From positions 12,530-76,529 of the forward strand of contig JBBTUH010000002.1 in assembly GCA_038063875.1 (NCBI GenBank): a stretch of 64,000 nucleotides of DNA, in the 5' to 3' direction. The stretch is from Patescibacteria group bacterium. Lineage in GTDB: Bacteria > Patescibacteriota > Microgenomatia > UBA10105 > UBA927. Below, piece after piece: positions 10,764 through 64,000 of the stretch (the stretch's first letter is position 1; each line of letters starts with the position of its first letter). The notes under the pieces were generated by a model, which saw nothing but the letters and a program-made list of their open reading frames with translations, was not told the DNA's origin and did no database searches. A program made the position numbers and the translations under genes.

Positions 10764-10822
10764 TTCCTATCCACTACCTTGACAGGAGGAGTTGTGAGAG
10801 AGAGAATAAGCATCATTGAATT

Positions 10823-11203: not shown

Positions 11204-11207
11204 GCAT

Positions 11208-11543: not shown

Positions 11544-11544
11544 C

Positions 11545-13382: not shown

Positions 13383-13394
13383 ATGTATAGTATA

Positions 13395-15939: not shown

Positions 15940-15985
15940 ACAATCTATTGTTTCGGAAATTGGGTATGTTTGTCAATACAAACCA

Positions 15986-32721: not shown

Positions 32722-32729
32722 GGTTGTTG

Positions 32730-36908: not shown

Positions 36909-36925
36909 TATAATACAATGCCCTG

Positions 36926-45500: not shown

Positions 45501-46080
45501 GAGCCGCCGCAAAACTAAAATTGGCAGAAAATACAAAAGTCAGCAAGAGCGCACAGAAAAGATAATACAGTCGATCAGATACCATAAATCGCAATAACAA
45601 ATAAAACATAATAGGGTTAAGGAACACATGATTGTGCGTCATCAGCACCTTGTCCCAACCAAAAATAGAAACAGGGGAGAAAACATACAATAACCCTCCT
45701 GCCACCGCAGCAAACTCTTTTAATCTTTCACCTTTTGTAGCAGTATAGAGAAGTTGTACGATCGATAAATACACAAACAAAAAACTCATAGACACACTCA
45801 AACCATGAAATGCGCTTATTAATACCGTCGATGACACAAATATTCGCTTTGCTACCGCCAAAAAAGCCACAAATGGTATGGTCATAAAACCGATATTCTC
45901 CGAGCCTACACCAGAGGGAGAGACGGCAAATAAAGAATAATTGAGAAGATACCGAAGAGGATCATAAAAGTACAATCGGCTGGAATCACCCCCCAGATCC
46001 ATAAATCCAGGTTTGAGCCAAAAAAAAGGAAAGATAAAGAGAATAAGCGTAATTACAAAAGGAAGAAGCTTACTCCTCAT
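42565..46080 (-). CDS. giant GT-C-like membrane glycosyltransferase (AftD/DUF3367-like) with ~650-aa extracytoplasmic domain and C-terminal TM anchor
   Basis: About 1171 aa from the internal Met (MRSKLLPF) that aligns with the paralog start. The ORF track gives 46137. PGFMDLGGDSSRLYFYDPLRYL resembles the AftD N-terminal signature (PG....DTKLDL..NPLRFL). Confidence 0.5.
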   Translation of the reverse strand: MRSKLLPFVITLILFIFPFFWLKPGFMDLGGDSSRLYFYDPLRYLLNYSLFAVSPSGVGSENIGFMTIPFVAFLAVAKRIFVSSTVLISAFHGLSVSMSFLFVYLSIVQLLYTATKGERLKEFAAVAGGLLYVFSPVSIFGWDKVLMTHNHVFLNPIMFYLLLRFMVSDRLYYLFCALLLTFVFSANFSFAAAPVFFAFYPITLVLLLMYKQWVLGQNIRWKQIGVACIIFILLQAFHIVPQIASMVTPGSVLYTSVFSAAGKYDRGLGYFSAIAPSIKASINVLMLPQTRELSTFLFFMIFVPFTLIVGLLRGAGEPQKYRKTLLIFCVGFLTIFFFATANIGEAGLSLYKKLFILPGFSIFRNFYGQWASAYLFYYALVFGMTLFVIINAYPKVKIWLGVFIFLLFVNAWPFINGSLTNPILWQSTNSRIAMNMDPVFVKALEYIRQLPNDGKFVTLPLTDPGYQIVAGKSEGAYQGPSMISYLAGKQDFAGTAEFGRYREILLDATANNDTTMVKRILGILNIKYIFYNSDPQVYDAFPAFPYDDVRKYLPKRQKEYKQFVDSLSLRLLESFDNRFFVYALDDKDVVPRVYVPSNVLSLSRVLNDASVPLTVLPNTIDTSVFFEEEDVELADARFYPAESQSHLLAMVKNPYPPRIMHHAFVTQSPSSFLYPLVVVKEKVKLWKFGRANYFSRIDQQSFLSAKRILELERFGESMPVLGTLRTLEDFNTVYKESRMSMNSWEATLARYYRYFDDSIKMIDTTDQSLLWKTEQRFLLTEYLRQHYRRVTLLIKNRDPIVSHRDYLEGITDMMFGNLLERTRADLSDLTVPYSASLPKKDAGPYDLYVDTSTYNVHDRLSVTINDARFQVPVNLKERWVKLGTVSHGESNPLDQGSLSLMEQQNMLTNNSRMMLESELSATDSASFAIDARYIKGAKGLVWKIDDWQPQSYYLLTFSYKTSGEPFVVRMLESQIKPEKADGTSTIVEDMLKSPTWQQYQAVVRTNTHVNTGFVQISPSTDQLSLSRIELKNVSLVHVPHPLMMVTKKIQNQDGLPPTISFVQVNPTMYKVHVTGAHGPYVLSLSEAYNRRWRVSLAASGKGIANTRHFQANGYANAWYIKPEDADGQSEYDLEVYMSMQSYFYIGASISAMALIGLLSYGMWRYIKNGVV

Positions 46081-46424
46081 GCGGTTATCTCCCGCCACTG
46101 CGCAATAAGCCCAAGAGCCATAAACAATACTAGCCACACAGCAAATCGCTCAGTAGATATTGAGGCACTGCTTACAAGATACGATATCGCCATGACGACC
46201 AACAAAACAAAACATACTTGAAACACTCGTACACTCGTAAGCTTTCCTGTACGCGCAAAGAACCAATAAAGAAAAAGCCCGCCAAACAATCGCACATCTT
46301 TTGAAATTGGAAACACGAAGACTTCCGCTACAATAAGTATGGAGACGAATGCTAAAAACGTCAGTTGATTTTCATGAATCCATTCGCCAAACACCACAAG
46401 CATGTTTTGTGTTTTCTTAAACAT
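46077..46424 (-). CDS. small 3-4 TM membrane protein, unknown function
   Basis: 115 aa, hydrophobic. Wedged between two giant paralogs and abutting the corrected start of the downstream gene. Confidence 0.35.
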   Translation of the reverse strand: MFKKTQNMLVVFGEWIHENQLTFLAFVSILIVAEVFVFPISKDVRLFGGLFLYWFFARTGKLTSVRVFQVCFVLLVVMAISYLVSSASISTERFAVWLVLFMALGLIAQWREITA

Positions 46425-48558
46425 ATGTTTTTTGACGAATTGACATTAAAGCTAATACGATCAAAGATATCAAGGTAACACCCCACCCAATCCAAATATA
46501 TTTTTGGCTCTTGAGCCTTAAGGTCATAGTATAACTCTTTTTTCCTTCAAGATCATCTGTGGTGAATCGCCACGCATTCGCATAGCCATTTAGTTTGACA
46601 TGCCGATCCTCCGGCACGAGCGTGTTATCAACAAACAATTGCCAATTACGATTGTATGTATTATTCCACACTACTATATTTGGATGCGTATCCTTGGTCG
46701 TAAGCGACATATGATAGAAAACGGGACTTATCCGTGTCGCCATAAATTGCGCTTGACTATCTGGTGCACCCTCAAGCACATCGGTCACATACAATTCTGA
46801 TCTCCATACCGATCTGTCCAATTCATATATTACATACGAACCGTTTGTATAAATGCGTTTCGTCGGAAGCTTGTCTACAAACTCTTCATACCCCTTCTGC
46901 GTTTGTGGAAAAGATGTTTTCATGTATGTATATGGCGACTGTGGGAAACCTGCCTCATAAATAGCAGGATCACTGTTGTGGAAAATATATCGTATAGATA
47001 ATCGAGACAGCAAGCTTGTAATCGCCTCGTAATCTTTTTCCCGTGCATATTTCATCATATCCTCCGGAAATGGACCAAAAATCTGGTAGCCATTAAAATC
47101 TTTTTTACCGGTAAGCTGCGAAATCGTAGAAGTGCCTACATACGCACCGCCATTTTTACCGGCCAATACTTGACTATACGCATCCGTCAAGGGCAGCGTC
47201 AAAATTTTGCCATCATCCGGAAGCGATCGGATAAACGCTAATGTTTCTTCATATTTAGGATCCATGGCAAACGTCATACGTACATTATCTGACTGCGTAT
47301 GAATTTTATTCACCGTCTCCCCCTTTAGAAAAGGCAACGCACTGACTACCCAAAGCACTATGATTACTCCACCCAAATACGACATCCACCTGCGATATGA
47401 CAAATGCTTAATAATTACGTGTATCGCTAACCCTAAAAGTAGGGCATAAAAGAACGCATACACAGACGGCCACTGACCGATAAAATTACGAAACATCGAA
47501 AAACCAGGAATGTAATACAAATTTTTATAAAATTCTACGCCGACGTTGGTAATCTTGGCCGCGTAAAGATACAGAGTAACTAAATAAAATCCAGCAGTAA
47601 GAATCAAAACCTTACTTTTTGTATTCAAAACAAATCCTATCATGATAATGGTCGGCGCTATAAAACTCACCCAAGTAAGCTGTGTGACCATAGGTGTCAT
47701 AAAAATATCTTTTACGACACTTGCAAGCGGTAAAATGGCAGTAAAATACCGCACACCTTCATGCATAATACTTGTGCGATCAAACACTCGAGTATTGGTA
47801 AAGCTTCCGGGTTCAAAAAGATTAATAACCTGCGGCAGGAGATGAAATGCTTGAATACCCAAAAACAACAATCCTCCATAGAACATCCATCTCCATGGAA
47901 TTACTTTCCGGACGACAAACTTGGTGTAGAGCAGTAGAAACACTATTGACAAAGGATAAAACGCAAAAAACGGCGGAGCACTCGTAAGGGCGAAATTAGG
48001 CGCGAAGACAAAGCTAATCCATAGTGCGGCCCAAAGATATTTGACGTTGGTGTCTGTAAAAAACTTGAGGATCAAATAAAACATCAGAGGATTTAAAAAT
48101 ACTTGATTATGAGAGGTGAGCGCCTTGTCATAATTACCAAGCATAATCGGAGCTAAGATATAAAACATACCCGCCATAAGCGGGGCAAGTATACTTTTTT
48201 TTCTGATGACTTCCCTTACTATCCCATACATCGCCAAGAATCCAACGCTCAACTTAAGACCCGAAATAATATTGATTACAATCGTCGGAGACTGGAAAAC
48301 AAACCTCAGCACGGCAATCAGAGCTACATAGGGAAGATAGTACGTATTAGGCTCTGCAAGCCCAAGTCCTTCCGGCACAAAATGATAGAGGCTCACATTT
48401 TTGATAAAGGATATGGGGTCATAAAAATATAATCTCCCGCTATCACCTCCTAAGTCCATCTCGCCAGATTTCAACCAAAAAAATGGTATGGAAAATAAAC
48501 AGGCTGCAAATATCCAGTGAATATTTCGACCTATCCATTTGTATATGATCGTATTCAT
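46417..48558 (-). CDS. GT-C-like membrane glycosyltransferase (AftD/DUF3367-like), paralog of 42565-46080
   Basis: 713 aa. The N-terminal FWLKSGEMDLGGDSGRLYFYDPISFI is nearly identical to the paralog motif. Same TM-domain/extracytoplasmic-domain/C-terminal-TM architecture. Confidence 0.5.
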   Translation of the reverse strand: MNTIIYKWIGRNIHWIFAACLFSIPFFWLKSGEMDLGGDSGRLYFYDPISFIKNVSLYHFVPEGLGLAEPNTYYLPYVALIAVLRFVFQSPTIVINIISGLKLSVGFLAMYGIVREVIRKKSILAPLMAGMFYILAPIMLGNYDKALTSHNQVFLNPLMFYLILKFFTDTNVKYLWAALWISFVFAPNFALTSAPPFFAFYPLSIVFLLLYTKFVVRKVIPWRWMFYGGLLFLGIQAFHLLPQVINLFEPGSFTNTRVFDRTSIMHEGVRYFTAILPLASVVKDIFMTPMVTQLTWVSFIAPTIIMIGFVLNTKSKVLILTAGFYLVTLYLYAAKITNVGVEFYKNLYYIPGFSMFRNFIGQWPSVYAFFYALLLGLAIHVIIKHLSYRRWMSYLGGVIIVLWVVSALPFLKGETVNKIHTQSDNVRMTFAMDPKYEETLAFIRSLPDDGKILTLPLTDAYSQVLAGKNGGAYVGTSTISQLTGKKDFNGYQIFGPFPEDMMKYAREKDYEAITSLLSRLSIRYIFHNSDPAIYEAGFPQSPYTYMKTSFPQTQKGYEEFVDKLPTKRIYTNGSYVIYELDRSVWRSELYVTDVLEGAPDSQAQFMATRISPVFYHMSLTTKDTHPNIVVWNNTYNRNWQLFVDNTLVPEDRHVKLNGYANAWRFTTDDLEGKKSYTMTLRLKSQKYIWIGWGVTLISLIVLALMSIRQKTYV

Positions 48559-49862
48559 GAGATTTTATATTTGGCAAGAAATACATCAAAAACAGAGAGT
48601 ACATACTGTATCATTTCATTCGTAATACCGGGATACACGCCAATCCAAAATCCATCATTCATAATTTTATCAGAATTGGATAGCGTACCTACGACTCGCA
48701 TATCTTTTCTCCCTCGGTATGCCGGATGTTTTAATAAATTTCCAGCAAAAAGATTTCTCGTCCCTATCTTATGATCCTCGAGCCACTCTACAAGCTCCAA
48801 TCTGGTAAATGGTGCACCATCAGCAATGACTATAGGAAACCCAAACCAACAAGGATCAGCTCCGTTTTCTACATCCATAAACAAGAAATATTTTTCGTAT
48901 TTGGATAATCCTTCTAGCAAAGCTTGATAATTAGCCTTTCTTGCTTTAATAAACTTCGGTAATTTATCTAACTGAGCTAGTCCTATAGCCGCCTGCATAT
49001 CAGTAAGCTTCACATTATATCCAATTTGCGAATAAATATATTTATGATCATAGCCATAGGGCAAGTCGCCGAGCTGCCAACGAAAACGTTTGCCGCAGGT
49101 ATTATCTTTTCCCGTATCACACCAACAGTCCCTTCCCCAATCTCGAAACTGTCGGATCGCTTTATGAATAAACGGATTACTTGTCACTACTGCCCCACCT
49201 TCACCCATGGTAATCTGGTGAGCAGGATAAAATGAAAAGGTTGCAACATGACCGAAAGTAGAAACTAATTTGCCATTGTATGTAGAGCCTAATGCGTCAC
49301 AACAATCCTCTATAAACCAAAGCTTGTGTTTGGTTACCAGCTTCATAATCCCGTCAAGTGGCATGGGATTGCCTAGGGTATGAGCCATCATGATGGCTTT
49401 TGTTTTAGGAGTTATCGCTTTTTGTATCGCCTGCACCGTCGCATTCTTTGTCCCCAAATCATTATCGATAAATACAGGGATGAATCCATTTTGAATAATA
49501 GGATTTACTGTAGTAGGAAACCCTGTGGCGACAGTAATGACCTCGTCACCTGCCTTCAGCGCACGCTCGCCAAAAACACTACTGGTAAGCGCCGAAAGTG
49601 CGATAAGATTGGCAGACGATCCAGAATTGACTAAGCTTACATATTTCACACCCAAATAATCACGAAATCGTCTTTCAAATTCTTCACTAAATCGTCCCTC
49701 CGTCCACCAGCCATCAAGCACTGCTTCGACCCCCTTATACATTTCCTCCGCATCAAAAACCTTGCCAGACACAGGCACAGGTGTTACGTTTGGAATAAAT
49801 TTCGATTTGTTATATTTAGCCTTATAATGTGCGCGAATGTGTGAAGCTAGTGCGTTTTTCAT
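48555..49862 (-). CDS. rfbH: CDP-6-deoxy-D-xylo-4-hexulose 3-dehydrase (E1; PMP- and [2Fe-2S]-dependent; RfbH/DdhC)
   Basis: Near-collinear match to remembered RfbH: GERALKAGDEVITVATGFPTTVNP, DCCDALG, FSFYPAHQITMGEGG (His in place of the aminotransferase Lys) and WGRDCWCDTGKDNTCGKRF (Fe-S Cys ligands). Confidence 0.9.
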   Translation of the reverse strand: MKNALASHIRAHYKAKYNKSKFIPNVTPVPVSGKVFDAEEMYKGVEAVLDGWWTEGRFSEEFERRFRDYLGVKYVSLVNSGSSANLIALSALTSSVFGERALKAGDEVITVATGFPTTVNPIIQNGFIPVFIDNDLGTKNATVQAIQKAITPKTKAIMMAHTLGNPMPLDGIMKLVTKHKLWFIEDCCDALGSTYNGKLVSTFGHVATFSFYPAHQITMGEGGAVVTSNPFIHKAIRQFRDWGRDCWCDTGKDNTCGKRFRWQLGDLPYGYDHKYIYSQIGYNVKLTDMQAAIGLAQLDKLPKFIKARKANYQALLEGLSKYEKYFLFMDVENGADPCWFGFPIVIADGAPFTRLELVEWLEDHKIGTRNLFAGNLLKHPAYRGRKDMRVVGTLSNSDKIMNDGFWIGVYPGITNEMIQYVLSVFDVFLAKYKIS

Positions 49863-49891
49863 ATACGGATCCTATTGTATCGAGGTATAGC

Positions 49892-50923
49892 TCAAATCAC
49901 AAACAGACGTTTAAACAATTTTTTCCCGTGAAACTCTATCTCTGAATACCCATACGCAATAACCATCAAAAAACACATAATCGGATGAAGAAACCATGCC
50001 ACATCCCGACGCTTTACATATCCTCGAATACTAAAGATAATCGGCTCAACAAACGTCAAAGAATAAATGACATATTTGAATAAATTCCATCGATCACGCG
50101 AAGACGTCCAATCCATGACATGATACGTCCGCTCTGCTGATTTTTCATCAGTAAAAAGCTGCTTTATGGCCACACGTCTTTTAATATGTAACAAAATATT
50201 GTTGCCCATCACATGAATGATGCTATTGTGTATCACTGCGACTGTATTATGACCACGCTGAACTATATCTTGAAATGCATCAACGTGAATATATGATCTC
50301 TGTTTTTTTATGGCTTCATTAAGAATGGAACGGTTAATAAGAAATCCGTTATCTCCCAACGTAGGCGTATTGTCTGAATTGAAACGAACAACTGAGTATC
50401 GTGCAGATTTACGTATTACGTATCCTTTCGTATACAAATCATTGACGATTGGTTCCTTATCAGATTTTTGTAGATAATACAACGTAGGATCTGGTGATCC
50501 TATCAGAGCAGTATATTTTGTTAAAAATGACATGTCGTCACGATAATCATTATGCATCGGGTAACTGCAAAAGATATCCTCCTTTATCATGGGTTCTACC
50601 AAACACGCCAACCAATTCTCACCGACGGGTATATTGTCAGATTCTAAAATAAGCACCAAATCACCTTTAGCTTTTTTCAATCCCAAAGAAAATCTGTACT
50701 GCTCCTTATCTCTTAAATCAGGACGAACTATCACTGTACACCCATATTTCCTTGCAAGGCTAGCGATTGCATTTGTCGAGCCCCCATCCATAATGATATG
50801 TTCGATGATATATTTTGAATATGTTTGAGATTTAAGTGAATCTAATACATTGCTGAATATTGCCAAATCACTATTATATGTGCCTGTCACAATGGACACA
50901 GTCGGATTAACAATCATATTCAC
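49892..50923 (-). CDS. glycosyltransferase family 2 with C-terminal membrane anchor
   Basis: VSIVTGTYNSDL...IIMDGGSTN and a hydrophobic C-terminus. Confidence 0.75.
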   Translation of the reverse strand: MNMIVNPTVSIVTGTYNSDLAIFSNVLDSLKSQTYSKYIIEHIIMDGGSTNAIASLARKYGCTVIVRPDLRDKEQYRFSLGLKKAKGDLVLILESDNIPVGENWLACLVEPMIKEDIFCSYPMHNDYRDDMSFLTKYTALIGSPDPTLYYLQKSDKEPIVNDLYTKGYVIRKSARYSVVRFNSDNTPTLGDNGFLINRSILNEAIKKQRSYIHVDAFQDIVQRGHNTVAVIHNSIIHVMGNNILLHIKRRVAIKQLFTDEKSAERTYHVMDWTSSRDRWNLFKYVIYSLTFVEPIIFSIRGYVKRRDVAWFLHPIMCFLMVIAYGYSEIEFHGKKLFKRLFVI

Positions 50924-50937
50924 AAAAAATGAAGAAA

Positions 50938-51837
50938 CTATTTTATACGCGCTGCGTGTATCATTTTCAACGAATTTTCATTCTTTATAATAGATTTTGT
51001 ATTATTAACGTTCACGATAAAATTATTTAATTCCAATAGCGTAAGGATTCTCTTCAACGAATTCTTTTTCTTATTCATTCCTGGATGATATTCTATGACA
51101 AACTCTCCAACACGATCTAAATAGTTCCTTGATTCCGCTAGAACCTCCCCTTCCATTCCTTCAACATCTAGCTTCACCACATCCGTCATTTTTCCGCGAA
51201 GAAGCCGAGACAAACGGACCGACTCGACCTGCAAAATGGACATATCCTGCCGGCCCTGAACGAAATCGGAAGCTCCCGTATCCGAAACAGACCATCCGTC
51301 ATTGGATTGAAATGTATAGAACGGATGGCGTTTCTCCAATGAATCGGTAACAAACGCCACTCTGATTTCAATATCACGGAGACCATTTTGCTTGATATTC
51401 CGCTTCAATAATTTTACCGTATGGCTATTTGCTTCAATCGCAACGATCAATGCATCCGGACACACATGCTTAAAATACAGTACGGACATACCCCAACTGC
51501 TGCCACAATCAATAATTGTCATGCGGTTTTTCTTTTTATTCAATTTATACTCCTGAATGCCGAATATTTCGATAAAAAGGAGCGTAAATTCTAGATAATT
51601 AGGAAATTCCATTGTATAGCCAAAAAATGATTCACGCGTTACATGTATCCAGAATAATTTTATATATACTGCTTTCAAAAAAAATTTAGTCTCCAACGCG
51701 AGGATGTGTAACCGTCGAAACAGGCCTAATTCTGTATTAAGAAGTATTGGCAACACACTTTTCAGTAGTGCTTGAAACGTAAAATAATAGAAATACAATC
51801 TAATAAAATATTGAGAATCTGTAATTTTTTTCATCAT
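50938..51837 (-). CDS. FkbM-family methyltransferase (Methyltransf_21) with N-terminal hydrophobic segment
   Basis: IIDCGSSWGMSVLYF...AIEAN...VKLDVEGMEGEVL matches the FkbM domain. The internal Met at 51837 removes a 77-bp overlap with the upstream gene. Confidence 0.7.
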   Translation of the reverse strand: MMKKITDSQYFIRLYFYYFTFQALLKSVLPILLNTELGLFRRLHILALETKFFLKAVYIKLFWIHVTRESFFGYTMEFPNYLEFTLLFIEIFGIQEYKLNKKKNRMTIIDCGSSWGMSVLYFKHVCPDALIVAIEANSHTVKLLKRNIKQNGLRDIEIRVAFVTDSLEKRHPFYTFQSNDGWSVSDTGASDFVQGRQDMSILQVESVRLSRLLRGKMTDVVKLDVEGMEGEVLAESRNYLDRVGEFVIEYHPGMNKKKNSLKRILTLLELNNFIVNVNNTKSIIKNENSLKMIHAARIK

Positions 51838-51841
51838 AGTA

Positions 51842-52723
51842 TTAAATGAATAATTCCCTCTGCAATAACGTTTTTTTATTCTTATACCAATCGTAGAGCC
51901 GAGACAGTGCTGTGTCAAAATCTGTATATTGAACGCTAGACAATTCTTTGCGTAGCCTGTCTGTGGCGCATGTATACTCTAAATTCAGCCCCTTCTTTTC
52001 AAGGAGTATAGGTATATTCTTTTTTGTAATTATAACAATACGCTGGGCTATTGTAACCAGATCAATCGGTATGCCGGTCCCGATGTTATATGTTCGATAT
52101 TGTTGATCATGTTCTACAAAATACTGAAGGATACGAATAAAATCATCAACATAAATATAATCAAATTTAACATTTTGTTTTATTACAATTGGTAAATCAA
52201 ACAACACGCGACAAAGGCTCTGGGAAATAAATCGAAACGCATATTCTTCATGTTTTCCATATATACCAAAAATACTAAGATTAAGCATGTTTAGCGGTGT
52301 CTCTTCTATAAATTTTGCACACACATACTTATACAATCCGAATTCATCAGTTGGTATACGCGTATCCAATGCTTCTTCACGCACACGTATAAGTGACGAC
52401 TGCTTTCCATATTGTGCACCTGAACCTAAGTAAATAAATTTTTTGAAATATCTATGATTATGTACAAGATTAAAAAAAATACGAAGATTATACGACATGA
52501 CATTAGAAACATTCTTTTCAGCTCTATTTCCACCGACATTTGCCGTGTGCACAACGACATCCACTGGATTCTGCTTTAAAAAAGCTTCCACACTGTCAAC
52601 GTTTCCAAGATCTAACTGTTTATGCGTGGGTGCTATAATGGCGTACTTTTCACCGAGCTGTTCTAGAATATTTCTTCCAATAAAGCCGCTGCCCCCCGTG
52701 AGAAAAATAGTATGTTTCCTCAT
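51842..52723 (-). CDS. NAD(P)-dependent epimerase/dehydratase-fold reductase (candidate CDP-4-keto-3,6-dideoxyhexose reductase, RfbJ/RfbS-like)
   Basis: IFLTGGSGFIGRNI Rossmann motif and a YKYVCAKFIEE YxxxK motif. 293 aa, which is the size of abequose/paratose synthases. Context beside rfbH. Confidence 0.55.
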   Translation of the reverse strand: MRKHTIFLTGGSGFIGRNILEQLGEKYAIIAPTHKQLDLGNVDSVEAFLKQNPVDVVVHTANVGGNRAEKNVSNVMSYNLRIFFNLVHNHRYFKKFIYLGSGAQYGKQSSLIRVREEALDTRIPTDEFGLYKYVCAKFIEETPLNMLNLSIFGIYGKHEEYAFRFISQSLCRVLFDLPIVIKQNVKFDYIYVDDFIRILQYFVEHDQQYRTYNIGTGIPIDLVTIAQRIVIITKKNIPILLEKKGLNLEYTCATDRLRKELSSVQYTDFDTALSRLYDWYKNKKTLLQRELFI

Positions 52724-52726
52724 ATG

Positions 52727-53725
52727 TCAAATCACTCTATTAATTGGATTTCCTTCTAAAAAGGCCATAATATTCTCACAAGAAATTCGCAGAATAGTAT
52801 CCAATGCCTCTTTAGTATGATAGGCATTATGTGGTGTTATCATCACTCGTTTATCTACCATAAATTTATAATTAAGAGAGGTTATATCCAATGGGCCGCG
52901 CTTAGAACCACTATTATATTCCTTTAAACCTTGTTCATTTTCCAAAACATCGAGTCCAGCACCATAAAGAATTTCATGTTGCAAAGCCCAATGAATAGCT
53001 TGTGTCTCTATGATCTCACCGCGTGATGTATTAAGCAAAATACTTCCCTTCTTAAGGAAAGAAATATTGCCCATGTTTAACATATGGTGTGTTTCATCAG
53101 TAAGAGGTACATGAATCGTCACAATGTCGCTCTCTTTAAGCAATGTAGACAGATTAATAAATTTAACACCATGCATTTTTGCGCGTTTAGAACTCGGATG
53201 TTTGCTATTTACCAAGACACGCATACCAAAGCCTTTTGCAATCTCTGCTACCCGAACCCCAATATTTCCAAGGCCCACTATCCCGATCGTCTTGCCAAAA
53301 ATGTCAAATCCCTGTGGGCCAACAAGATACTGTCCTGTACGTGATACCTGAACACATGAGGCAATGTTGTGGGTGAGCGATAAAAGTAAACCAAACGTAT
53401 GCTCTGCTACCGCATTGGTAGCATATGAGGGAACGTTCGAGACAACAATTCCTCTCTGCTTACAGTAATCTATGTCAATATTATCAAAACCCGTTGATCG
53501 GGTCGCTATATACTTCAATTTTGGAAGACAGCTTAAAATATCTGCTGTGACCTGAGAAAAACTTCGTATATAGAGAATGTCTGTTTCTTTGATTGTTGCC
53601 GCGTTCTGTATCGTCAATGACTGCCTGTGAAATACAAACGTGTGTTCTGCTGGTAATGATGCAAATTTGATCCGTTCGTCTTCTGTAATATCAAAGAAAG
53701 AAATAATCATAAAACTCCAAAACAA
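52727..53725 (-). CDS. D-isomer-specific 2-hydroxyacid dehydrogenase (NAD-binding)
   Basis: GKTIGIVGLGNIGVRVAEIAKGFGMRVL Rossmann motif, and a catalytic-domain pattern with conserved R and H (SRGEII...MITPHNAY). Confidence 0.8.
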   Translation of the reverse strand: MFWSFMIISFFDITEDERIKFASLPAEHTFVFHRQSLTIQNAATIKETDILYIRSFSQVTADILSCLPKLKYIATRSTGFDNIDIDYCKQRGIVVSNVPSYATNAVAEHTFGLLLSLTHNIASCVQVSRTGQYLVGPQGFDIFGKTIGIVGLGNIGVRVAEIAKGFGMRVLVNSKHPSSKRAKMHGVKFINLSTLLKESDIVTIHVPLTDETHHMLNMGNISFLKKGSILLNTSRGEIIETQAIHWALQHEILYGAGLDVLENEQGLKEYNSGSKRGPLDITSLNYKFMVDKRVMITPHNAYHTKEALDTILRISCENIMAFLEGNPINRVI

Positions 53726-53726
53726 A

Positions 53727-55541
53727 TTAGGGCTCTTTTATTGGATCAATTATCATATTTTTATTAAACTCTTTTCGGGATAAAAATGGCCACATATCTT
53801 CCATGGGCTTAGAGATGAGCTTACCATCTGCACGCACATATGAAGAAACTTTAGGAAGAAGCTGTTGCATCGGATCCATCATGATCTCAAGAAGATATGG
53901 ACCCGTTGTTTCAAGAGCACGTTGAATTGCTTTCTTTAACCCATTATGCCCATGTATTCTACTCGACTGAATGCCGTATGCTTTTGCTATTTTTTGCATG
54001 TTAGGAAAACTAATGCCACTTTTAGGACCTTCTCCTACAAGATGATTAAAAAAGTTAATTTGCGTATTACGAATGGCAACATACCCATCGTTATTGATAA
54101 GAAAAATCTTTATTGGCAATTTATGATAAACAATCGTCTGCAATTCTTGAATATTTAATTGAATACTCCCGTCTCCAGCAATACAAACAACTCTCTTTTT
54201 TCCGTTTGCAATAGATGCGCCAATTGCAGCTGATATGTCATAACCCATAGGTGCAGAACCAATGTTGCCGATGAGGCGTTGACTCTTTTTTAATCGAATA
54301 CTCTGATACGTACAAGTAAATGCTGTACCATCCGCAACTACGATTACCTCATCCTCCTTCATACAGTCGGAAAGTACATCTATAAAGTGATAGGAATTAA
54401 TGTATTTCTTCTGATCTCGCATTTCTGGGAGTACTGGAAGATATGTGTTCCTGATTCTTTTACAATATGCAAACCATTCTGGCCAATCGGAAAATACAAC
54501 TTTTTTTGTTTGCCGATCCATTTCTTCTATAAACACTTTAGCGTCGCAACAGATGGGAACATCTGGATGTACTGTTTTCTTTTTAAGTTCTTCTTTATCA
54601 ATATCCACCATGACATGTGTGGCACCACGAGCAAATGTGTCATAAGCATATGATATGGTCCACGTCGAAAGCCGTGTGCCAATGCTAATAAGGAGATCAC
54701 AATTTTGGACAATAAAATTTCCAACCCGCTCACCAAATAATGCAGGTCGACCAAAGAAAAGCGGATGATCTGATGAAATAATATCATGAGCAGTTACCGC
54801 GGTAAGTATTGGTACATTAAGCCGATCAGCAAGATGTAAGAATTCCTGTACTGCACCTGCCAGTCGGATGCCGTTACCTGCAAGAATCACTGGTCTTTTC
54901 GCGCGTTTAAGCAAAGCCACAGTTTTTGCTATATCTTTTTTCACCTTGTCGTTACTGTCTACATTAAGCTCAATTTCATTTGGATGAAACGCAGGAAGGG
55001 TATCTACATCAATCTGTGCTGCCTGAATATCCAATGGAACATCGATCCAACATGGTCCAGGTCTTCCATGCGTTGCTAAATATAATGCTTTCTCGAGATG
55101 ATACCGTATCTGCCTTGGATCAGTAATCATAACAGCATATTTAGTAATATTTTTCACCACATCTACTATAGGAAGTTCCTGAAGTCCGATTTGCCGCACT
55201 TTGGTATTACCTATCGTCATCTCCAATTTTGACTGACCGGAAATATACAATCCTGGAATAGAATCTAACCACATACCAATAAGACCCGTAATTGCATTGG
55301 TGCCGCCTGGACCAGTCGTCACCTGAACCGGAGCAATCTTTCCTGTAAGTCGTGTATACCCCTCTGCCGCAAACGCACAAGCCTGTTCATGATGACAACA
55401 CCAATAACGTAGACGCGAATTACTACCAAATGATTCATTAAGATGCATCGCCCCTCCACCAGTAACCATAAACGCGTCACGAATGCCGTTATTTACAAGA
55501 AATGAGACGATATAATCTGAAAGTTTAACGATTTTTGTCAT
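53727..55541 (-). CDS. thiamine-pyrophosphate-dependent enzyme, acetolactate synthase large-subunit-like (candidate YerE-type NDP-sugar C-branching enzyme)
   Basis: N-terminal TPP_enzyme_N (TGPGGTNAITGL), a central domain and a C-terminal GDGS...NNDGY TPP-binding motif. 604 aa. Confidence 0.75.
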   Translation of the reverse strand: MTKIVKLSDYIVSFLVNNGIRDAFMVTGGGAMHLNESFGSNSRLRYWCCHHEQACAFAAEGYTRLTGKIAPVQVTTGPGGTNAITGLIGMWLDSIPGLYISGQSKLEMTIGNTKVRQIGLQELPIVDVVKNITKYAVMITDPRQIRYHLEKALYLATHGRPGPCWIDVPLDIQAAQIDVDTLPAFHPNEIELNVDSNDKVKKDIAKTVALLKRAKRPVILAGNGIRLAGAVQEFLHLADRLNVPILTAVTAHDIISSDHPLFFGRPALFGERVGNFIVQNCDLLISIGTRLSTWTISYAYDTFARGATHVMVDIDKEELKKKTVHPDVPICCDAKVFIEEMDRQTKKVVFSDWPEWFAYCKRIRNTYLPVLPEMRDQKKYINSYHFIDVLSDCMKEDEVIVVADGTAFTCTYQSIRLKKSQRLIGNIGSAPMGYDISAAIGASIANGKKRVVCIAGDGSIQLNIQELQTIVYHKLPIKIFLINNDGYVAIRNTQINFFNHLVGEGPKSGISFPNMQKIAKAYGIQSSRIHGHNGLKKAIQRALETTGPYLLEIMMDPMQQLLPKVSSYVRADGKLISKPMEDMWPFLSRKEFNKNMIIDPIKEP

Positions 55542-56295
55542 AAGATAAGGTGAGATAGAGTATATCAGAGAAGCTTTCTAGACGCTGCATGCTACGCAAA
55601 GAAGAAACTGAGACCACTTCACCAGCAGATAGAATCAACCTGCCATCACCATCATGCAACTTTCCTTTGAGTAAACAGAGAAGCTCTCCTCGCGCTTTAT
55701 TAATACAATCACCAACATCTTTCGTATATGAATGGCTTGCGATAGTAAGTAGTGTATGATCAAGTAATTTTTCCATTTTTTTACCATTGGAATATGTATG
55801 AAAATCTACATAGGTATATGCGTCGAGATTCTTTGACATTTGAGAGACTCCCTCATATCCTTGATCTTCTCTACCATATGCATCTTTTAGCCGTACAAGA
55901 TCTTTTTTATTCGGTGGACTTTCCACTTCTATAACGAGCGCCCCGCCTTTGGAAACTGCACGCGTAGTATGAAATACTCCCTCATCGAAGATTATTCCAT
56001 CTCCCTGCTTTCTGGTTAGCCAGCCCTCAAGGGTACTACACACAACTTCACCTGAAACAACTATTAAGGATGTTTTTTTATTGGGATGACAATGCATCGA
56101 CGTTTTATGATTATTATTTAAATTCAACACCCACGCTGCTACGAAAGGATTTTCATACAATAGATATTCATATCCCCATGGTTTATTAACCACAATACCC
56201 CGATAGTTAAAGTTATCGACATCTGTGGGAATTGAAGTACGAAGTTTGGACAAATTTTCAATATCAAACTTTGACCTATAAAATCGATTGATCAT
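55525..56295 (-). CDS. cupin-fold protein with mannose-6-phosphate-isomerase type II-like domain
   Basis: KPWGYEY...HCHPNKKTSLIVVSGEV...VIEVESPPNKKDLVRLKDAYGRE parallels the PMI-type cupin (RPWG.Y...H.HR.EHW.Vv.G...lIEVQ.G....DIVRfeD.YgR). A second, degenerate cupin-like half follows. Confidence 0.6.
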   Translation of the reverse strand: MINRFYRSKFDIENLSKLRTSIPTDVDNFNYRGIVVNKPWGYEYLLYENPFVAAWVLNLNNNHKTSMHCHPNKKTSLIVVSGEVVCSTLEGWLTRKQGDGIIFDEGVFHTTRAVSKGGALVIEVESPPNKKDLVRLKDAYGREDQGYEGVSQMSKNLDAYTYVDFHTYSNGKKMEKLLDHTLLTIASHSYTKDVGDCINKARGELLCLLKGKLHDGDGRLILSAGEVVSVSSLRSMQRLESFSDILYLTLSYDKNR

Positions 56296-56345
56296 AAAAA
56301 TGGAAAATCATGAATAATAAAACGCTCAACTAGAATGTTACGTCC

Positions 56346-56891
56346 TCATTCTTGTTTCTTACGTAAAGCTTCTACGATTTTATCACACCACGCCTCACTC
56401 GTTTCTGGTCTATCCGCTGTAATAAGATTTCCATCTACCACAACATTTTCAGAAACATATGTAGCTCCTGCATGAACAAGATCGGCTTTCATAGCAGGGT
56501 AACATGTCGCTTTTTTTCCATGAAGAATTTCGGCAGTACAAAGCACCCACGGACCATGACAAATTGCTGCAACTATTTTACCCTGCGCATTCATGTCTTG
56601 AATAAATTGTATAACCTTCTCATTTGAACGCACACGATCTGGACCCTCATATCCTCCTGGAAACAGTACTGCAACATAATCATCTGTCTTTAAGAGCGCG
56701 ATATGCACAGTCGGCTCTAGCTTATAACCTTTTTTTCCTTCAATTGTGACATCTGGTATTCTATAAAGTGTCGCAATATCAGTAGTAATTCCATGCTTTG
56801 GTAAATATTCTAAAGGAACTTTTACTTCCATTTCATCGAATCCATTACCGACAATCATAATGGCTTTCTGTTCTTTACTCATAGGGCACAT
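56346..56891 (-). CDS. DJ-1/PfpI family protein (class I glutamine amidotransferase-like fold)
   Basis: GKIVAAICHGPWVL nucleophile-elbow motif. 181 aa. Confidence 0.8.
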   Translation of the reverse strand: MCPMSKEQKAIMIVGNGFDEMEVKVPLEYLPKHGITTDIATLYRIPDVTIEGKKGYKLEPTVHIALLKTDDYVAVLFPGGYEGPDRVRSNEKVIQFIQDMNAQGKIVAAICHGPWVLCTAEILHGKKATCYPAMKADLVHAGATYVSENVVVDGNLITADRPETSEAWCDKIVEALRKKQE

Positions 56892-56894
56892 CCT

Positions 56895-57680
56895 TTATTC
56901 TTGTAACCAATACATTTGATTTTTATCGACCAAATTTTGTAAATAAAGATAATCTCTATCCGTATCCAGCCATTTCCAAAACCCGCGATGCGGAAACACA
57001 GCAAGTTGTTTTTCATTTATAAGCTTTAAGAAAATTTCGGACTCCAATCGACACTCATTAAATGAAGTAAGATACGAAATAAGCTTGCTGCTTGCCACCA
57101 TATAGCCACCATTTACATAGCGTTGTTGTTTTATATTTGCTTCTTTTTTTGCATCATATGGTGCACGTATAATATTTTTTTCGACACTATATTCTCCATC
57201 ACGGTATGGTGGAATAACACCGGTAAGTGTTAATATTTTATTTGACATCTTATGAGAACGAAGTAACATATTTATATCAATATCTGCAATAGTATCAGAG
57301 TATGTAATAAAAAAATCTTCATCCTGAATATATTCTTTACATCTATGGATACGCGCACCGGAATTAGAATTTTCGCCGGTATCTACAAATGTAATGCGCC
57401 ATTTTTCCTCCTGATGTTTACTCAACAGATCAATTTTTGAAGATCCGAGTGACAATTGCATATCCGTCACATATTGATCATAGTGAAGAAAATAGTCTCG
57501 TATAAGCTCTCCCTTTGCTCCTAATGCAAGAATAAAATCATTGTGTCCTGCGAGAGCAAAACGCTTCATTATGTGCCAAAGCACAGGTCGATGCCCAAGC
57601 CGTACCATACCTTTCGGAATATAGGTTGACTCATCATAAAGTCGTATACCCCTCCCGCCGCATAAAATAATTACTTTCAT
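56895..57680 (-). CDS. glucose-1-phosphate cytidylyltransferase paralog (DdhA/RfbF-like)
   Basis: MKVIILCGGRGIRL...PKGMVRLGHRPVLWHIMK...TYSDTIADID...FWKWLDT is collinear with RfbF and with the neighbouring ddhA. Confidence 0.7.
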   Translation of the reverse strand: MKVIILCGGRGIRLYDESTYIPKGMVRLGHRPVLWHIMKRFALAGHNDFILALGAKGELIRDYFLHYDQYVTDMQLSLGSSKIDLLSKHQEEKWRITFVDTGENSNSGARIHRCKEYIQDEDFFITYSDTIADIDINMLLRSHKMSNKILTLTGVIPPYRDGEYSVEKNIIRAPYDAKKEANIKQQRYVNGGYMVASSKLISYLTSFNECRLESEIFLKLINEKQLAVFPHRGFWKWLDTDRDYLYLQNLVDKNQMYWLQE

Positions 57681-58654
57681 GTGTTATTTAAATACCACAA
57701 ATACACTTTTGCTAGGACTTTTTTCAACGTATACGATGGAGCGTATCCTAATCCTTTCACCTTGTCAAAATTTAATGATTGGTAAGGTATTTCATTTTGC
57801 TGTGTATTAAGAATCGAGTATTGTACTTTTTTCTTCAACATTGTTTCAATCGTATTGATAACTTCAAGAACTGTTAAAGATTCGCCTGATGAAAGATTGT
57901 ATGCTTCTCCTTTAGACTTATCAATACAATCAAGAAGAACTCGATATCCGACTACTACATCCTTTACATATACGTAATCACGAACAAACATACCATCACT
58001 TCTTATATCTAATCTAGTATGAGTAATAATTGCATTAAGTACGCTCGGAATAATCCTATTAAAGTTTAAATCCCCTTCTCCGTATATATTGCCAAATCGA
58101 GTTACTACAATGGGCATATTATAAGTCTTAGCGTACGCAAGAGAAATTAAATCTGCAGAAGATTTTGAAACCTCATATGGATGATCGCCACGAAGGGGAT
58201 CAGACTCAACATACTTTTTTGTTGACTTGCCATACGCTTTGTCAGACGAAGCGACTATTATACCCTTAACGCTTCCATAGAGTCGCGCCGCTTCAAGTAT
58301 ATTCGTGGTGCCCAAAACGTTTGTAGTGATGGTTTCCCTAGGATTATTATACGCCGTAGTGACAATCGCCTGTGCCCCTAAATGAAAAATATAATCTATT
58401 TCATATTTGGTTACGATGTCAAACATTCGAGAAAAGTCTTTGAGATCACCTGAAACAAGAGTTACTTTCTTTGCAAGTTTTTGTGTGGCAAAATATGAAC
58501 CTGGATCAAGACTTCGAAAAGGCACGATTACACGAGATCCTTCAGAGATAAGGGATTCTACTAAATGGCTTCCAACAAATCCTGTGCCACCTGTAACCAA
58601 AATTTTTTTGCCTTTTAATTTTCCCATAGCTTCCATGGTTGGGTATCTTGCCAA
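57677..58654 (-). CDS. NDP-sugar 4,6-dehydratase (extended SDR; CDP-glucose 4,6-dehydratase by context)
   Basis: ILVTGGTGFVGSHL, YEVSKSSADL YxxxK and ASSDKAYG motifs. Flanked by two G1P cytidylyltransferases. Confidence 0.6.
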   Translation of the reverse strand: MARYPTMEAMGKLKGKKILVTGGTGFVGSHLVESLISEGSRVIVPFRSLDPGSYFATQKLAKKVTLVSGDLKDFSRMFDIVTKYEIDYIFHLGAQAIVTTAYNNPRETITTNVLGTTNILEAARLYGSVKGIIVASSDKAYGKSTKKYVESDPLRGDHPYEVSKSSADLISLAYAKTYNMPIVVTRFGNIYGEGDLNFNRIIPSVLNAIITHTRLDIRSDGMFVRDYVYVKDVVVGYRVLLDCIDKSKGEAYNLSSGESLTVLEVINTIETMLKKKVQYSILNTQQNEIPYQSLNFDKVKGLGYAPSYTLKKVLAKVYLWYLNNT

Positions 58655-59397
58655 TATGCATTCAAATGCTCTACATCAGCATATGTGTCCATGCAGTGCC
58701 AAAATCCTTCATGTTGATACATCGATAGCTGTTGTTGTTTTGCTAAGCGTTGAAGCGCTGGGTGCTCAGTTTCACCTTCCCGCAAATTATCAAAAAACTT
58801 TCTGTTAAAAATCATAAAGCCACCGTTAATCCAGTCCTTGAGTACCGGCTTTTCCTTAAACTGAAATACCGCCCGTTTAGCTCCAAGCTGTATGAGTCCA
58901 TATTTACTTCTTGGATGAACACCACTAATCGTACCAATTGTCTTCATTTTTTTGTGAAATGCGATTAGTTTAGAGATATTTATATCTCCCACGCCATCAC
59001 CATATGTAACCATAAAATCTTCATCAGCAGGAATGTAATCCTTACATCGCAGAATTCTCTCTCCGGGTAATGTTTCCTGACCAGTATCAACGAAGGTAAT
59101 TTTAAAATCATCAATTAACTTTCCGTCCGTCTTATCCCTATGAATCTTCGTTGCTCCAGTTTTTGTGTGAAGTGTAAAGTCATGCAAAAAATATTTTTGA
59201 TTTAAGAAATAATCTTTTATATAATCGCCCTTATAACCTAATGCAATAATAAATTCGTTAAATCCATAGTGGGCATAAATTTTCATGATATGCCACAAAA
59301 TAGGCTTTCCACCGATAAGCACCATTGGCTTTGGTTTAAACTCCGTTTCTTCCTTTAATCTGTATCCTAATCCACCAGATAAAATAATAGTCTTCAT
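58615..59397 (-). CDS. rfbF: glucose-1-phosphate cytidylyltransferase
   Basis: MKTIILSGGLGYRL...KPKPMVLIGGKPILWHIMKIY...VTYGDGVGDINI...INGGFMIFN...EGFWHCMDT matches Salmonella RfbF/DdhA almost residue-for-residue. Confidence 0.85.
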   Translation of the reverse strand: MKTIILSGGLGYRLKEETEFKPKPMVLIGGKPILWHIMKIYAHYGFNEFIIALGYKGDYIKDYFLNQKYFLHDFTLHTKTGATKIHRDKTDGKLIDDFKITFVDTGQETLPGERILRCKDYIPADEDFMVTYGDGVGDINISKLIAFHKKMKTIGTISGVHPRSKYGLIQLGAKRAVFQFKEKPVLKDWINGGFMIFNRKFFDNLREGETEHPALQRLAKQQQLSMYQHEGFWHCMDTYADVEHLNAYWQDTQPWKLWEN

Positions 59398-59407
59398 AAT
59401 ACAGTCA

Positions 59408-60385
59408 TTATAACGTATATCTCTTTACAAACAAACCTTTCGTCATCCAGAATGTTTCAAGAAACACCAAGCAAATCACAACAATCGGTAACAGCAGTAT
59501 ATTTCTATCTCTTCGCGATACCGAATCTGTAAACATGGTCCACATATACCAGAAAGGAAAAATAATTAATGGCAGCACAAATAACGGATATACAAATGAT
59601 AAAATTGTCAAAACGACTAACATAGGCTTCACGAGAAAAGGAATAAAACCAACTCCCATTTCCCTCCAATGAAGTCGTATCTGCAAAGCGTACGATATTG
59701 CTAAAAATTTTCTACGCTTCACCCAATCTTGCATGCTGTAATTTATGTCTCTTCCATGAAGATGAACCACACGAGCGTTTGTAACCGCTATCTTACCCAA
59801 GGAAGCTAATCGAAAATTCATATCTGCATCTTCAGATCCAATGTAATGATCAAAGTTTTTTGTATCATATCCACCCACACTCAAAAATATATCTCTATCA
59901 TAAGCGTCAAACTTACCATTCAAGCTATGACGCTTAGTTTCGACAACTGAAGCAAATAGGCATTTTTGCCAAAAATTATATTTATCCCATTCTATCTTGC
60001 GATGAACCACGTTAGGCATAGCAGCAATAAAGTTTTTTTTATAAACAAATGGACTCATCAATCGAGCCAACTCAAATTTCGTCGGCAACGTACTATCTGA
60101 ATGAAGTGTCACTATGTATTTACTTCGAGCAAGCGCCGCCCCTAAATTATAACTATGCGAAAGTCCGTATGTTTTCTTTCGTTGAATAATCTTGATAGGA
60201 ATTCTATGATGCATCTTTATAAATGCTTGTGCAACAGCGACGGACCGATCAGGTGAATGGTTATCTATAAGAAGCATTTTCTGTATCGGATAGGTTTGAC
60301 CGTAAATGCTTTTTAAAACATCAGCTAACACACGCTCCACTTTGTAGACAGGAATAATAATCGTCACCGTAGGTAGTTGTTGCAT
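59408..60385 (-). CDS. glycosyltransferase family 2 with C-terminal TM helices
   Basis: VTIIIPVYKVERVL...LLIDNHSPDRS, plus three C-terminal hydrophobic helices. Confidence 0.75.
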   Translation of the reverse strand: MQQLPTVTIIIPVYKVERVLADVLKSIYGQTYPIQKMLLIDNHSPDRSVAVAQAFIKMHHRIPIKIIQRKKTYGLSHSYNLGAALARSKYIVTLHSDSTLPTKFELARLMSPFVYKKNFIAAMPNVVHRKIEWDKYNFWQKCLFASVVETKRHSLNGKFDAYDRDIFLSVGGYDTKNFDHYIGSEDADMNFRLASLGKIAVTNARVVHLHGRDINYSMQDWVKRRKFLAISYALQIRLHWREMGVGFIPFLVKPMLVVLTILSFVYPLFVLPLIIFPFWYMWTMFTDSVSRRDRNILLLPIVVICLVFLETFWMTKGLFVKRYTL

Positions 60386-63990: not shown

Positions 63991-64000
63991 ATCATGTGAG

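Follow-up and report, generated by a model that had tools for sequence, protein, structure and literature searches.

An operon on the minus strand at positions 48555-59397 of a 64,000-nucleotide stretch from the genome of a Patescibacteria group bacterium (contig JBBTUH010000002.1 of assembly GCA_038063875.1; the whole stretch is called the window below) probably makes a cytidine diphosphate (CDP)-activated 3,6-dideoxyhexose with a carbon branch at C-4 and delivers it to a cell-surface glycan. The operon carries CDP-dideoxyhexose genes together with the gene of a thiamine diphosphate (ThDP)-dependent enzyme, the closest characterised relative of which is the carboligase JanthE. The initial annotation of this DNA had proposed that an enzyme resembling acetolactate synthase adds a branch to a CDP-dideoxy sugar, as YerE does in the biosynthesis of yersiniose, and this logic is supported both by the match to JanthE and by the synteny of the ThDP gene with those of the 3-dehydrase E1, a cytidylyltransferase and a 4,6-dehydratase. 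The genes it had listed, including those of an FkbM methyltransferase and a family 2 glycosyltransferase (GT2), were all found in this interval and on this strand. The window was examined along with a 10-kb flank on each side, i.e., over 84 kb.

The interval contains 11 open reading frames (ORFs), identified with Pfam and NCBIfam models, which run in one direction and are spaced by 50 nt or less or overlap. The co-directional array extends beyond the interval: 17 minus-strand genes follow each other from 60385 down to at least 39376, again with gaps of at most 50 nt or overlaps, and every long ORF between about 39.4 and 64 kb is on the minus strand. A scan of the 45.5-61.5 kb region for promoters and terminators gave the same counts as shuffled controls and was uninformative about the limits of the operon. 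The genes discussed here are the following:

59408-60385, minus: GT2 glycosyltransferase, 325 aa, the first gene of the array, with a 203-nt gap upstream (NCBIfam GT2-type matches)
58615-59397, minus: NT1, glucose-1-phosphate cytidylyltransferase (RfbF/DdhA-like), 260 aa (TIGR02623, alignment with RfbF)
57677-58636, minus: NDP-hexose 4,6-dehydratase of the CDP-glucose type, an extended short-chain dehydrogenase/reductase (SDR), 319 aa (S-D-K dyad, YxxxK)
56895-57680, minus: NT2, divergent cytidylyltransferase paralogue, 261 aa (TIGR02623)
56346-56882, minus: DJ-1/PfpI family protein, 178 aa (PF01965, TIGR01382)
55525-56295, minus: cupin protein, 256 aa, with an N-terminal metal-type cupin and a C-terminal beta domain
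53727-55541, minus: putative YerE/JanthE-like ThDP-dependent carboligase, 604 aa (TPP_enzyme N/M/C, match to JanthE, synteny, tree)
52727-53710, minus: D-isomer-specific 2-hydroxyacid dehydrogenase, D-lactate-dehydrogenase-like, 327 aa (PF02826/PF00389)
51842-52723, minus: extended SDR of the NDP-sugar reductase type, 293 aa, called SDR293 here (PF01370)
50938-51834, minus: FkbM-family methyltransferase, 298 aa (TIGR01444, 75.6 bits; start taken from the gene call of the contig)
49892-50917, minus: GT2 glycosyltransferase with a hydrophobic C-terminus, 341 aa (PF00535)
48555-49862, minus: E1, CDP-6-deoxy-4-hexulose 3-dehydrase (RfbH/DdhC) of the pyridoxamine phosphate (PMP) and [2Fe-2S] type (NF011936, motifs)
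46417-48558, minus: membrane glycosyltransferase of the GT-C fold (AftD-like), 713 aa, overlapping E1 by 4 nt
46077-46424, minus: small membrane protein, 115 aa, with a 113-aa counterpart at the same place in the sister locus L094
42565-46080, minus: paralogue of the 713-aa GT-C-like protein, 1171 aa (38% identity over about 590 aa)

The CDP-sugar genes were compared with the Salmonella rfb proteins, which were taken from a plasmid-borne rfb locus (L087). The homologues of RfbF, RfbG and RfbH show 43, 27 and 53% identity, respectively, and the same catalytic motifs. NT1 scored 281.8 bits with TIGR02623, slightly below the cutoff of 300.25, and it keeps the KPKPMV and EKP motifs of RfbF. The 4,6-dehydratase announced by the initial annotation is present: it scored 184 bits with TIGR02622 and 180 bits with the dTDP model, each under its cutoff, and its S-D-K dyad and YxxxK motif align with those of the CDP-glucose enzyme RfbG and not with the T-D-E of the dTDP-glucose enzyme RfbB. 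We take the S-D-K dyad to denote CDP specificity, on the strength of the Holden and Vogan structures. The E1 3-dehydrase was also correctly recognised, including the replacement of the lysine and the iron-sulfur cysteines: with NF011936 it reached 665.5 bits (cutoff 423), its identity to RfbH is 52.6%, histidine takes the place of the lysine that carries pyridoxal phosphate (AHQIT, aligning with AHHIT of RfbH) and the [2Fe-2S] motif C-X57-C-X-C-X7-C begins at C188. This motif was defined by Agnihotri et al. (2004, cited in PMC8987622) as C-X57-C-X1-C-X7-C. Of 40 full-length E1 homologues, 9 did not fit the pattern used.

The glucose-1-phosphate cytidylyltransferase had been described as present in two copies, which is correct for the RfbF-like NT1, whereas NT2 (227.9 bits with TIGR02623) is a divergent paralogue lacking EKP, the motif for sugar binding. 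In the alignment of NT2 with its orthologues in the related loci L007 (7906-8694), L081 (6928-7710), L094, L095 and L096, EKP is gone, KPKPMV is changed to IPKG(M/L)V and a TYSD motif is present. Since these motifs are lost or altered throughout, NT2 appears from its residues to be a conserved paralogue with a modified nucleotide or sugar pocket and presumably a different substrate or role.

The ThDP enzyme has the three-domain TPP_enzyme N/M/C architecture of Pfam, with the catalytic E52 in HHEQ, and the residues G456-D457-G458...N483-N484 are invariant in the alignment of its family. Its best match in the PDB was 8RPH (439 bits), followed by 5AHK (255 bits) and the plant and bacterial acetohydroxyacid synthases (AHAS; about 240 bits). 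8RPH is JanthE of Janthinobacterium sp. HH01, a characterised YerE-like carboligase accepting ketones (PMC12188165, PMC12247030) and the nearest relative that has been both characterised and solved; this identification was confirmed by the aligned sequence, which shows the unusual CDG motif of JanthE, whereas the window enzyme has the canonical GDG. The identity amounts to 37% with JanthE over the full length, 31% with PpYerE, 28% with E. coli IlvB and 27% with IlvI. In a neighbour-joining tree, the outermost sequences are IlvI and IlvB, PpYerE and JanthE branch next, in this order, and a large family including the window enzyme comes last. All in all, these data support a YerE/JanthE-like carboligase rather than an acetolactate synthase. 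It is extremely improbable that the enzyme is a genuine acetolactate synthase serving the branched-chain amino acids and lying by chance in a sugar cluster. Its best NCBIfam names are indeed those of the acetolactate synthase large subunit, and several sources label the homologues in this way, but it is under every NCBIfam acetolactate synthase cutoff (the best being TIGR00118, with 351.4 bits against 538.35, and the other models falling far short of theirs), JanthE is closer to it than AHAS, and the sugar-gene synteny is conserved across phyla. The clustering with IlvB or IlvG that the initial annotation had named as speaking against its reading was not observed, as the tree sets the enzyme, with JanthE and PpYerE, apart from IlvI and IlvB, and the small subunit is missing as well: tblastn searches with E. 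coli IlvH and IlvN (E<=0.01) gave no match in the window or in 94 loci.

The family of the ThDP enzyme is very large. More than 8000 database matches were scored, and in contigs representing one genome per species the family is present in at least 600 stretches belonging to most of the bacterial phyla and some DPANN archaea. The neighbourhoods were analysed in the best 80 loci (L007-L086; 45-54% identity of the ThDP enzyme), many of which are incomplete. A 4,6-dehydratase-like SDR occurs near the ThDP gene in 54 of the 80 loci, an E1 homologue in 44, a cytidylyltransferase homologue in 38 and an SDR293 homologue in 27, and the SDR293 family is located at a median distance of 57 nt from the ThDP gene in 21 loci. 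Unsupervised clustering of all the ORFs showed the presence of two keto-acid-forming types of enzyme next to the ThDP gene, a NeuB-family enzyme in 35 loci and an HpcH/HpaI aldolase in 24, never together, the median distance to the ThDP gene being about 650 nt for each, so that one or the other occurs in 59 of the 80 loci. A dehydroquinate-synthase-like gene and a short-chain SDR usually accompany the HpcH type, and a HAD hydrolase the NeuB type.

Acyl-branched sugar pathways are already known in the cases of yersiniose, erwiniose and caryophyllose, and more than 200 YerE-like clusters have been predicted (PMC9306805, PMC12247030). In the yersiniose A pathway of Yersinia pseudotuberculosis (YerE/YerF; Chen, Guo and Liu, 1998, cited in PMC9306805), which the window operon resembles, CDP-glucose is converted by a 4,6-dehydratase and E1 into CDP-4-keto-3,6-dideoxyglucose, the C-4 of which is acylated by a ThDP enzyme resembling acetolactate synthase, with an NAD(P)H reductase encoded next to it. 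A unifying scheme has been published for the ErwE/ErwF/ErwI/ErwJ (erwiniose), MMAR_2332 (caryophyllose) and MyGE systems: long acyl branches are put on CDP-4-keto-3,6-dideoxyglucose by a YerE-like ThDP carboligase together with a donor-forming aldolase and a reductase, and the genes stand beside those for CDP-dideoxyhexoses (PMC9306805). Most of the 80 relatives fit this erwiniose/caryophyllose scheme by way of their HpcH-type or NeuB-type partners. Since the neighbourhoods combining NeuB or HpcH with the ThDP and SDR genes match the published scheme, the central idea of a branched sugar is supported, and the kind of pathway is one already known. The pairing of NeuB with a YerE-like enzyme is not mentioned in the literature surveyed on acyl-branched sugars. 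As regards the variant or previously undescribed pathway that had been suggested, what the data uphold is a variant with undescribed helper genes, the pathway class itself having been described.

Unlike the canonical ddh loci, the window operon lacks an E3 gene (ddhD/rfbI). In the Salmonella rfb locus, rfbI lies immediately upstream, between rfbC and rfbF, genes for paratose synthase and an epimerase stand at the end, and there is no ThDP enzyme. The statement that no E3 of the DdhD/AscD type occurs in the window was borne out: in tblastn and phmmer searches with Salmonella RfbI (324 aa), which gave 674 bits with its own locus as the positive control, the best match in the window had E=3.3. 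Over the 10 kb beyond each end of the window, which is as far as the search reached, this query gave no E3 either, and the precomputed Pfam labels of these flanks show neither Fer2 nor FNR domains. A standard abequose or paratose locus with its E3 just beyond the edge of the window was rejected, since the flanks contain none; the window also differs from the canonical abequose, paratose, tyvelose and ascarylose loci in the low identity (17%) of SDR293 to CDP-paratose synthase and in the presence of the YerE-like enzyme. A regular expression for E3 motifs (Fer2, RxYS and GGxGxxP) likewise gave no match and was discarded because it would miss the Salmonella E3 (GGTGFAP).

The absence of E3 had been regarded as an anomaly, which it is not. 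E1 without a clustered E3 is the norm among the relatives of the ThDP family, since the RfbI query found no E3 in 43 of the 44 E1-bearing relatives, nor in the three further sister operons L094-L096, and SpnQ provides a precedent. The only E3-like element among the 80 loci is a 240-aa NAD_binding_1 (FNR-type) protein near E1 (L018:8152-8874), in which the ferredoxin domain is absent. SpnQ, the E1-homologous 3-dehydrase acting on TDP-4-keto-2,6-dideoxyglucose in spinosyn biosynthesis, is also of the iron-sulfur and PMP type; its cluster encodes no dedicated E3, and it is served by ferredoxin or flavodoxin reductase pairs of a general kind (PMC8987622). It differs from the window E1 in using a TDP substrate and in belonging to actinomycete secondary metabolism, whereas the window E1 scores above the cutoff of the RfbH (CDP-type) equivalog model. 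By analogy, the most economical reading would be that the electrons come from general ferredoxin or flavodoxin carriers encoded elsewhere. Since E1 very often has no adjoining E3, most 3,6-dideoxyhexose pathways would be missed if ddhD were used as their marker.

In the tree, the window ThDP enzyme groups with those of two Roizmanbacteria loci (L007 and L081), and the organization of the operon was compared in the window, these two loci and three contigs reached via the cupin (L094-L096). The order is conserved: NT1, 4,6-dehydratase, NT2, DJ-1, cupin, ThDP enzyme, 2-hydroxyacid dehydrogenase, SDR293, a HAD protein and/or a methyltransferase, GT2 and E1, except that in L081 the dehydrogenase is located between DJ-1 and the cupin. 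DJ-1/PfpI, NT2 and the cupin are part of the conserved core of the operon. Neither an aldolase nor a NeuB enzyme is present in the operons of this clade, in which, contrary to the erwiniose-type scheme, a 2-hydroxyacid dehydrogenase, the cupin and DJ-1 stand in place of the aldolase. With partners of the NeuB type, the HpcH type or the dehydrogenase/cupin/DJ-1 type, mutually exclusive over 80 genomes, a simple genomic rule is available for predicting the type of branch.

The dehydrogenase belongs to the D-2-hydroxyacid family in the window and L081, and to the Ldh_2 family (PF02615) in L007, L094, L095 and L096. These two families are unrelated and usually have opposite stereospecificities. 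What they share is the 2-oxoacid and not the stereochemistry, which points to the supply of a 2-oxoacid donor; the window enzyme is more likely to be a keto-acid supplier than a sugar reductase. Its best PDB match was the D-lactate dehydrogenase 3kb6 (197 bits), and its scores with the phosphoglycerate dehydrogenase and glyoxylate reductase models almost equal that with D-lactate dehydrogenase. The Ldh_2 proteins of the sister operons have only sub-threshold NCBIfam matches (ureidoglycolate or sulfolactate dehydrogenase), and the HAD proteins are beta-phosphoglucomutase-like, also below threshold.

The cupin and ThDP genes overlap by 17 nt in the window, and in four loci from other phyla the two form a single ORF of 850-862 aa, with the cupin at the N-terminal end of the ThDP enzyme: L027:9257-11809 (Pacearchaeota), L042:9239-11815 (Scalindua), L021:9212-11800 (Nitrospinaceae) and L074:97-2655 (Chloroflexi). 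These natural fusions argue that the cupin acts directly, in physical association, with the ThDP enzyme. A DJ-1 gene lies upstream of the fusion in three of the four loci. E1 is absent within 10 kb of the fusions (the L074 stretch being 5.7 kb long), as are the cytidylyltransferase and the dehydratase, which indicates that the DJ-1/cupin/ThDP trio, and the ThDP family in general, are not tied to the products of E1 or to a single acceptor. Radical SAM and B12-radical SAM genes are abundant in the fusion loci L021, L027 and L042. Besides radical SAM enzymes and a GT2, the Scalindua locus (L042) encodes a CMP-sugar-acid cytidylyltransferase, an HldE-like enzyme and an altronate/galactarate dehydratase, which also forms a 2-keto acid.

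The cupin family comprises 637 homologues, none of which is named. The residues His68, His70, His109, Glu123 and Glu125 are invariant, and a KPWGYE motif resembling that of phosphomannose isomerase is present; the AlphaFold2 model (pLDDT 88.5) matched generic cupin structures only, and a sequence search of the PDB gave no meaningful match. The DJ-1/PfpI protein scored 163 bits with PF01965 and 145.3 bits with TIGR01382 (cutoff 139), and its Glu/Cys-His signature (E19, C108, H109) is invariant in eight orthologues from several phyla. In the literature surveyed, the yersiniose pathway is described with no cupin, DJ-1 protein, second nucleotidyltransferase or 2-hydroxyacid dehydrogenase, all of which the window has, and we also found nothing relevant linking a cupin with YerE, or the Candidate Phyla Radiation (CPR) with dideoxyhexoses.

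SDR293 has its best PDB matches in RmlD and GDP-fucose synthase, and on the basis of sequence it is a candidate for the side-chain ketoreductase, i.e., the role of YerF; its position beside the ThDP gene mirrors the yerE-yerF and erwE-erwF pairs (PMC9306805). As to the transfer of the sugar, the slot equivalents in L081 and L096 of the GT2 preceding E1 match PgfS (228-245 bits), one of the PgfS/ArnC-like polyprenyl-phosphate GT2s, and a GtrA-like gene is present in the sister operons. The 713-aa membrane protein adopts the GT-C fold and carries an acidic motif in its first external loop; it gave neither a Pfam match nor a PDB sequence match. It belongs to a family of 524 homologues, the few taxon-labelled ones of which are all from CPR groups, and its 1171-aa paralogue is homologous to a 1233-aa protein located after E1 in L094. 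The GT2 and GT-C set fits a transfer from the nucleotide sugar to a lipid carrier and then to an extracytoplasmic acceptor. In comparison with the GtrB/GtrC, ArnC/ArnT and PgfS/PgfM pairs and mycobacterial AftD, the GT2 of the window has no specific match, and its GT-C proteins form a family so far restricted to the CPR and having no Pfam model.

Based on the family assignments, motifs, synteny, gene fusion, lack of E3 nearby and GT-C fold observed, we infer the following reactions, electron source, donor and final acceptor. NT1 would form CDP-glucose, which the CDP-type 4,6-dehydratase would convert into CDP-4-keto-6-deoxyglucose. The iron-sulfur and PMP enzyme E1 would then take off the 3-hydroxyl group with electrons from housekeeping ferredoxin or flavodoxin carriers instead of a dedicated E3. 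The 2-hydroxyacid dehydrogenase of the operon would provide a 2-oxoacid, which the ThDP enzyme, with the cupin, would decarboxylate, adding the acyl anion to the C-4 ketone. SDR293 would reduce the ketone of the side chain, the FkbM enzyme may methylate the product, and the sugar would be loaded onto a carrier by the GT2 before the AftD-like GT-C enzymes place it outside the membrane. As far as the donor is concerned, we tentatively favour the oxidation of lactate to pyruvate, giving a hydroxyethyl branch of the yersiniose type, as a reading that falls somewhat short of probable. It is favoured because the dehydrogenase is D-lactate-dehydrogenase-like, there is no donor-building aldolase and the redox balance agrees with the SDR step, since the oxidation of lactate would return the NADH used by the SDR. 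What keeps us from holding it more firmly is the conservation of DJ-1, the cupin and NT2, which are unexplained by it and may build or process another donor. The module had been called yersiniose-like: the logic of a branched sugar is supported, but an acetyl branch derived from pyruvate is not established.

On the same backbone, the cupin, DJ-1/PfpI and the dehydrogenase might instead make a non-central 2-oxoacid, resulting in an undescribed branch, which we consider rather unlikely. In one route of this kind, a DJ-1 of the glyoxalase III type would convert a 2-oxoaldehyde into a 2-hydroxyacid, to be oxidised by the dehydrogenase, with hydroxypyruvate, glyoxylate and a deoxy-keto sugar acid as candidate donors. 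That DJ-1, which has kept its catalytic residues, forms a trio with the cupin and the ThDP enzyme in several phyla agrees with this possibility, as do the dedicated dehydrogenase of all the Patescibacteria operons, its nearly equal scores with the phosphoglycerate dehydrogenase and glyoxylate reductase models, the donor-building enzymes of all the other clades (NeuB, HpcH, or the altronate/galactarate dehydratase of L042) and the fact that ErwE rejects pyruvate (PMC9306805). However, the glyoxalase role of DJ-1 is an analogy, and the cupin-ThDP fusion loci have no dehydrogenase. In more general terms, DJ-1/PfpI, the cupin and the ThDP enzyme, together with an exchangeable dehydrogenase and NT2, might form a new unit installing a non-acetyl branch on a CDP-keto sugar; we regard this as possible but doubtful. 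If it were the case, the surface of these CPR bacteria would carry an undescribed monosaccharide, and E1 would be running without a dedicated reductase.

The operon might also make two products: NT1, the dehydratase, E1 and SDR293, acting as a C-4 reductase as in abequose or paratose biosynthesis, would yield an unbranched 3,6-dideoxyhexose, while NT2, DJ-1, the cupin, the ThDP enzyme and the dehydrogenase would serve another acceptor. The presence of two nucleotidyltransferases and two GT2s in the operon, the size of SDR293, which is that of CDP-paratose synthase with a full-length but remote alignment (E=3e-5), and the fused cupin-ThDP loci lacking E1, the cytidylyltransferase and the dehydratase speak for this division. 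It is nonetheless improbable: E1 and the ThDP family occur together in 44 of the 80 loci, many of them incomplete, SDR293 adjoins the ThDP gene and not that of E1, it is just 17% identical to paratose synthase, and the whole ThDP block lies between the dehydratase and E1 in a conserved order.

Several points weigh against the single C-4-branched CDP-dideoxyhexose that we favour. The tree contains only JanthE and PpYerE as YerE-like references, and PpYerE is barely nearer to the window enzyme than AHAS (31% versus 28%). The physiological substrates of JanthE are unknown (PMC12188165). An E3 or another reductase may be encoded elsewhere in the genome, the cupin-ThDP fusions occur without E1, and the GT2 of the window itself gave no specific polyprenyl-phosphate-transferase match. 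The route that we propose has no role for NT2, DJ-1 or the cupin, in spite of their strict conservation, and since pyruvate is a central metabolite, the dedicated dehydrogenase hints at another donor.

What is new is the cupin, coupled or fused to the ThDP enzyme, together with DJ-1, NT2, the exchange of the dehydrogenases, the occurrence in a CPR host and the GT-C enzymes specific to the CPR. With the pathway class known and E3 commonly missing, there is less novelty than was thought initially. Acyl-branched sugars are rare surface determinants encountered in a few Gram-negative bacteria as well as in mycobacteria. The operon suggests that the Patescibacteria, which are ultra-small and depend on hosts, carry a sugar of this type on the envelope through which they presumably attach to the host; to our knowledge, almost nothing is known about the chemistry of this envelope. 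YerE-like enzymes are sought after for the production of chiral tertiary alcohols, and the clade of the window adds a cupin partner, coupled or fused, and a different supply of the donor.

The window also contains a mur/dcw cluster (1-13400: murA, murB, Mur ligases, a penicillin-binding protein, rsmH and mraZ) with the glycyl-tRNA synthetase gene, and FemAB, mraY, ftsW and murG lie beyond its left end. The mur/dcw cluster and FemAB indicate a CPR bacterium with a wall of the Gram-positive type and no lipopolysaccharide, unlike Yersinia, a Gram-negative host with lipopolysaccharide. The lineage does not use genetic code 25, since TGA serves as a stop codon, and Rfam and tRNA scans of the whole window detected no tRNA gene, no Rfam family and no TPP riboswitch. 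In the NCBI metagenome-assembled genome, which is named Patescibacteria group bacterium, the ThDP enzyme is called a thiamine pyrophosphate-binding protein and the cupin a hypothetical protein. Identical proteins in public data come from the Hainich groundwater well H52 (0.1-0.2 µm filter fractions).

Other glycan genes are present around the operon. Directly upstream of it, at 63712-64000 of the window and in the flank to the right of the window (L088:5860-10016), a second nucleotide-sugar pathway (an SDR, a DegT-type aminotransferase and two more SDRs) is accompanied by several glycosyltransferases, which suggests that an amino-deoxy sugar is present in the same glycan. At 13963-16624 and 23328-26309, there are a DUF4012 protein beside an initiating sugar-phosphate transferase (Bac_transf) and a 993-aa membrane protein with a weak match to Wzy_C (O-antigen ligase/polymerase), respectively; the Bac_transf/DUF4012 and Wzy_C-like proteins are candidate components of the machinery that assembles the same polymer. 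A plus-strand block (34802-38080) carries genes for an SDR, a family 4 glycosyltransferase and one methyltransferase, a second methyltransferase being encoded on the minus strand (36321-36908). Two pairs resembling type IV toxin-antitoxin systems also lie on the minus strand within the glycan gene region, beside this block, at 38081-39336 (an AbiEii toxin, PF08843, with an upstream 191-aa partner) and at 31786-33830 (an AbiEi_2-domain protein with a 311-aa protein).

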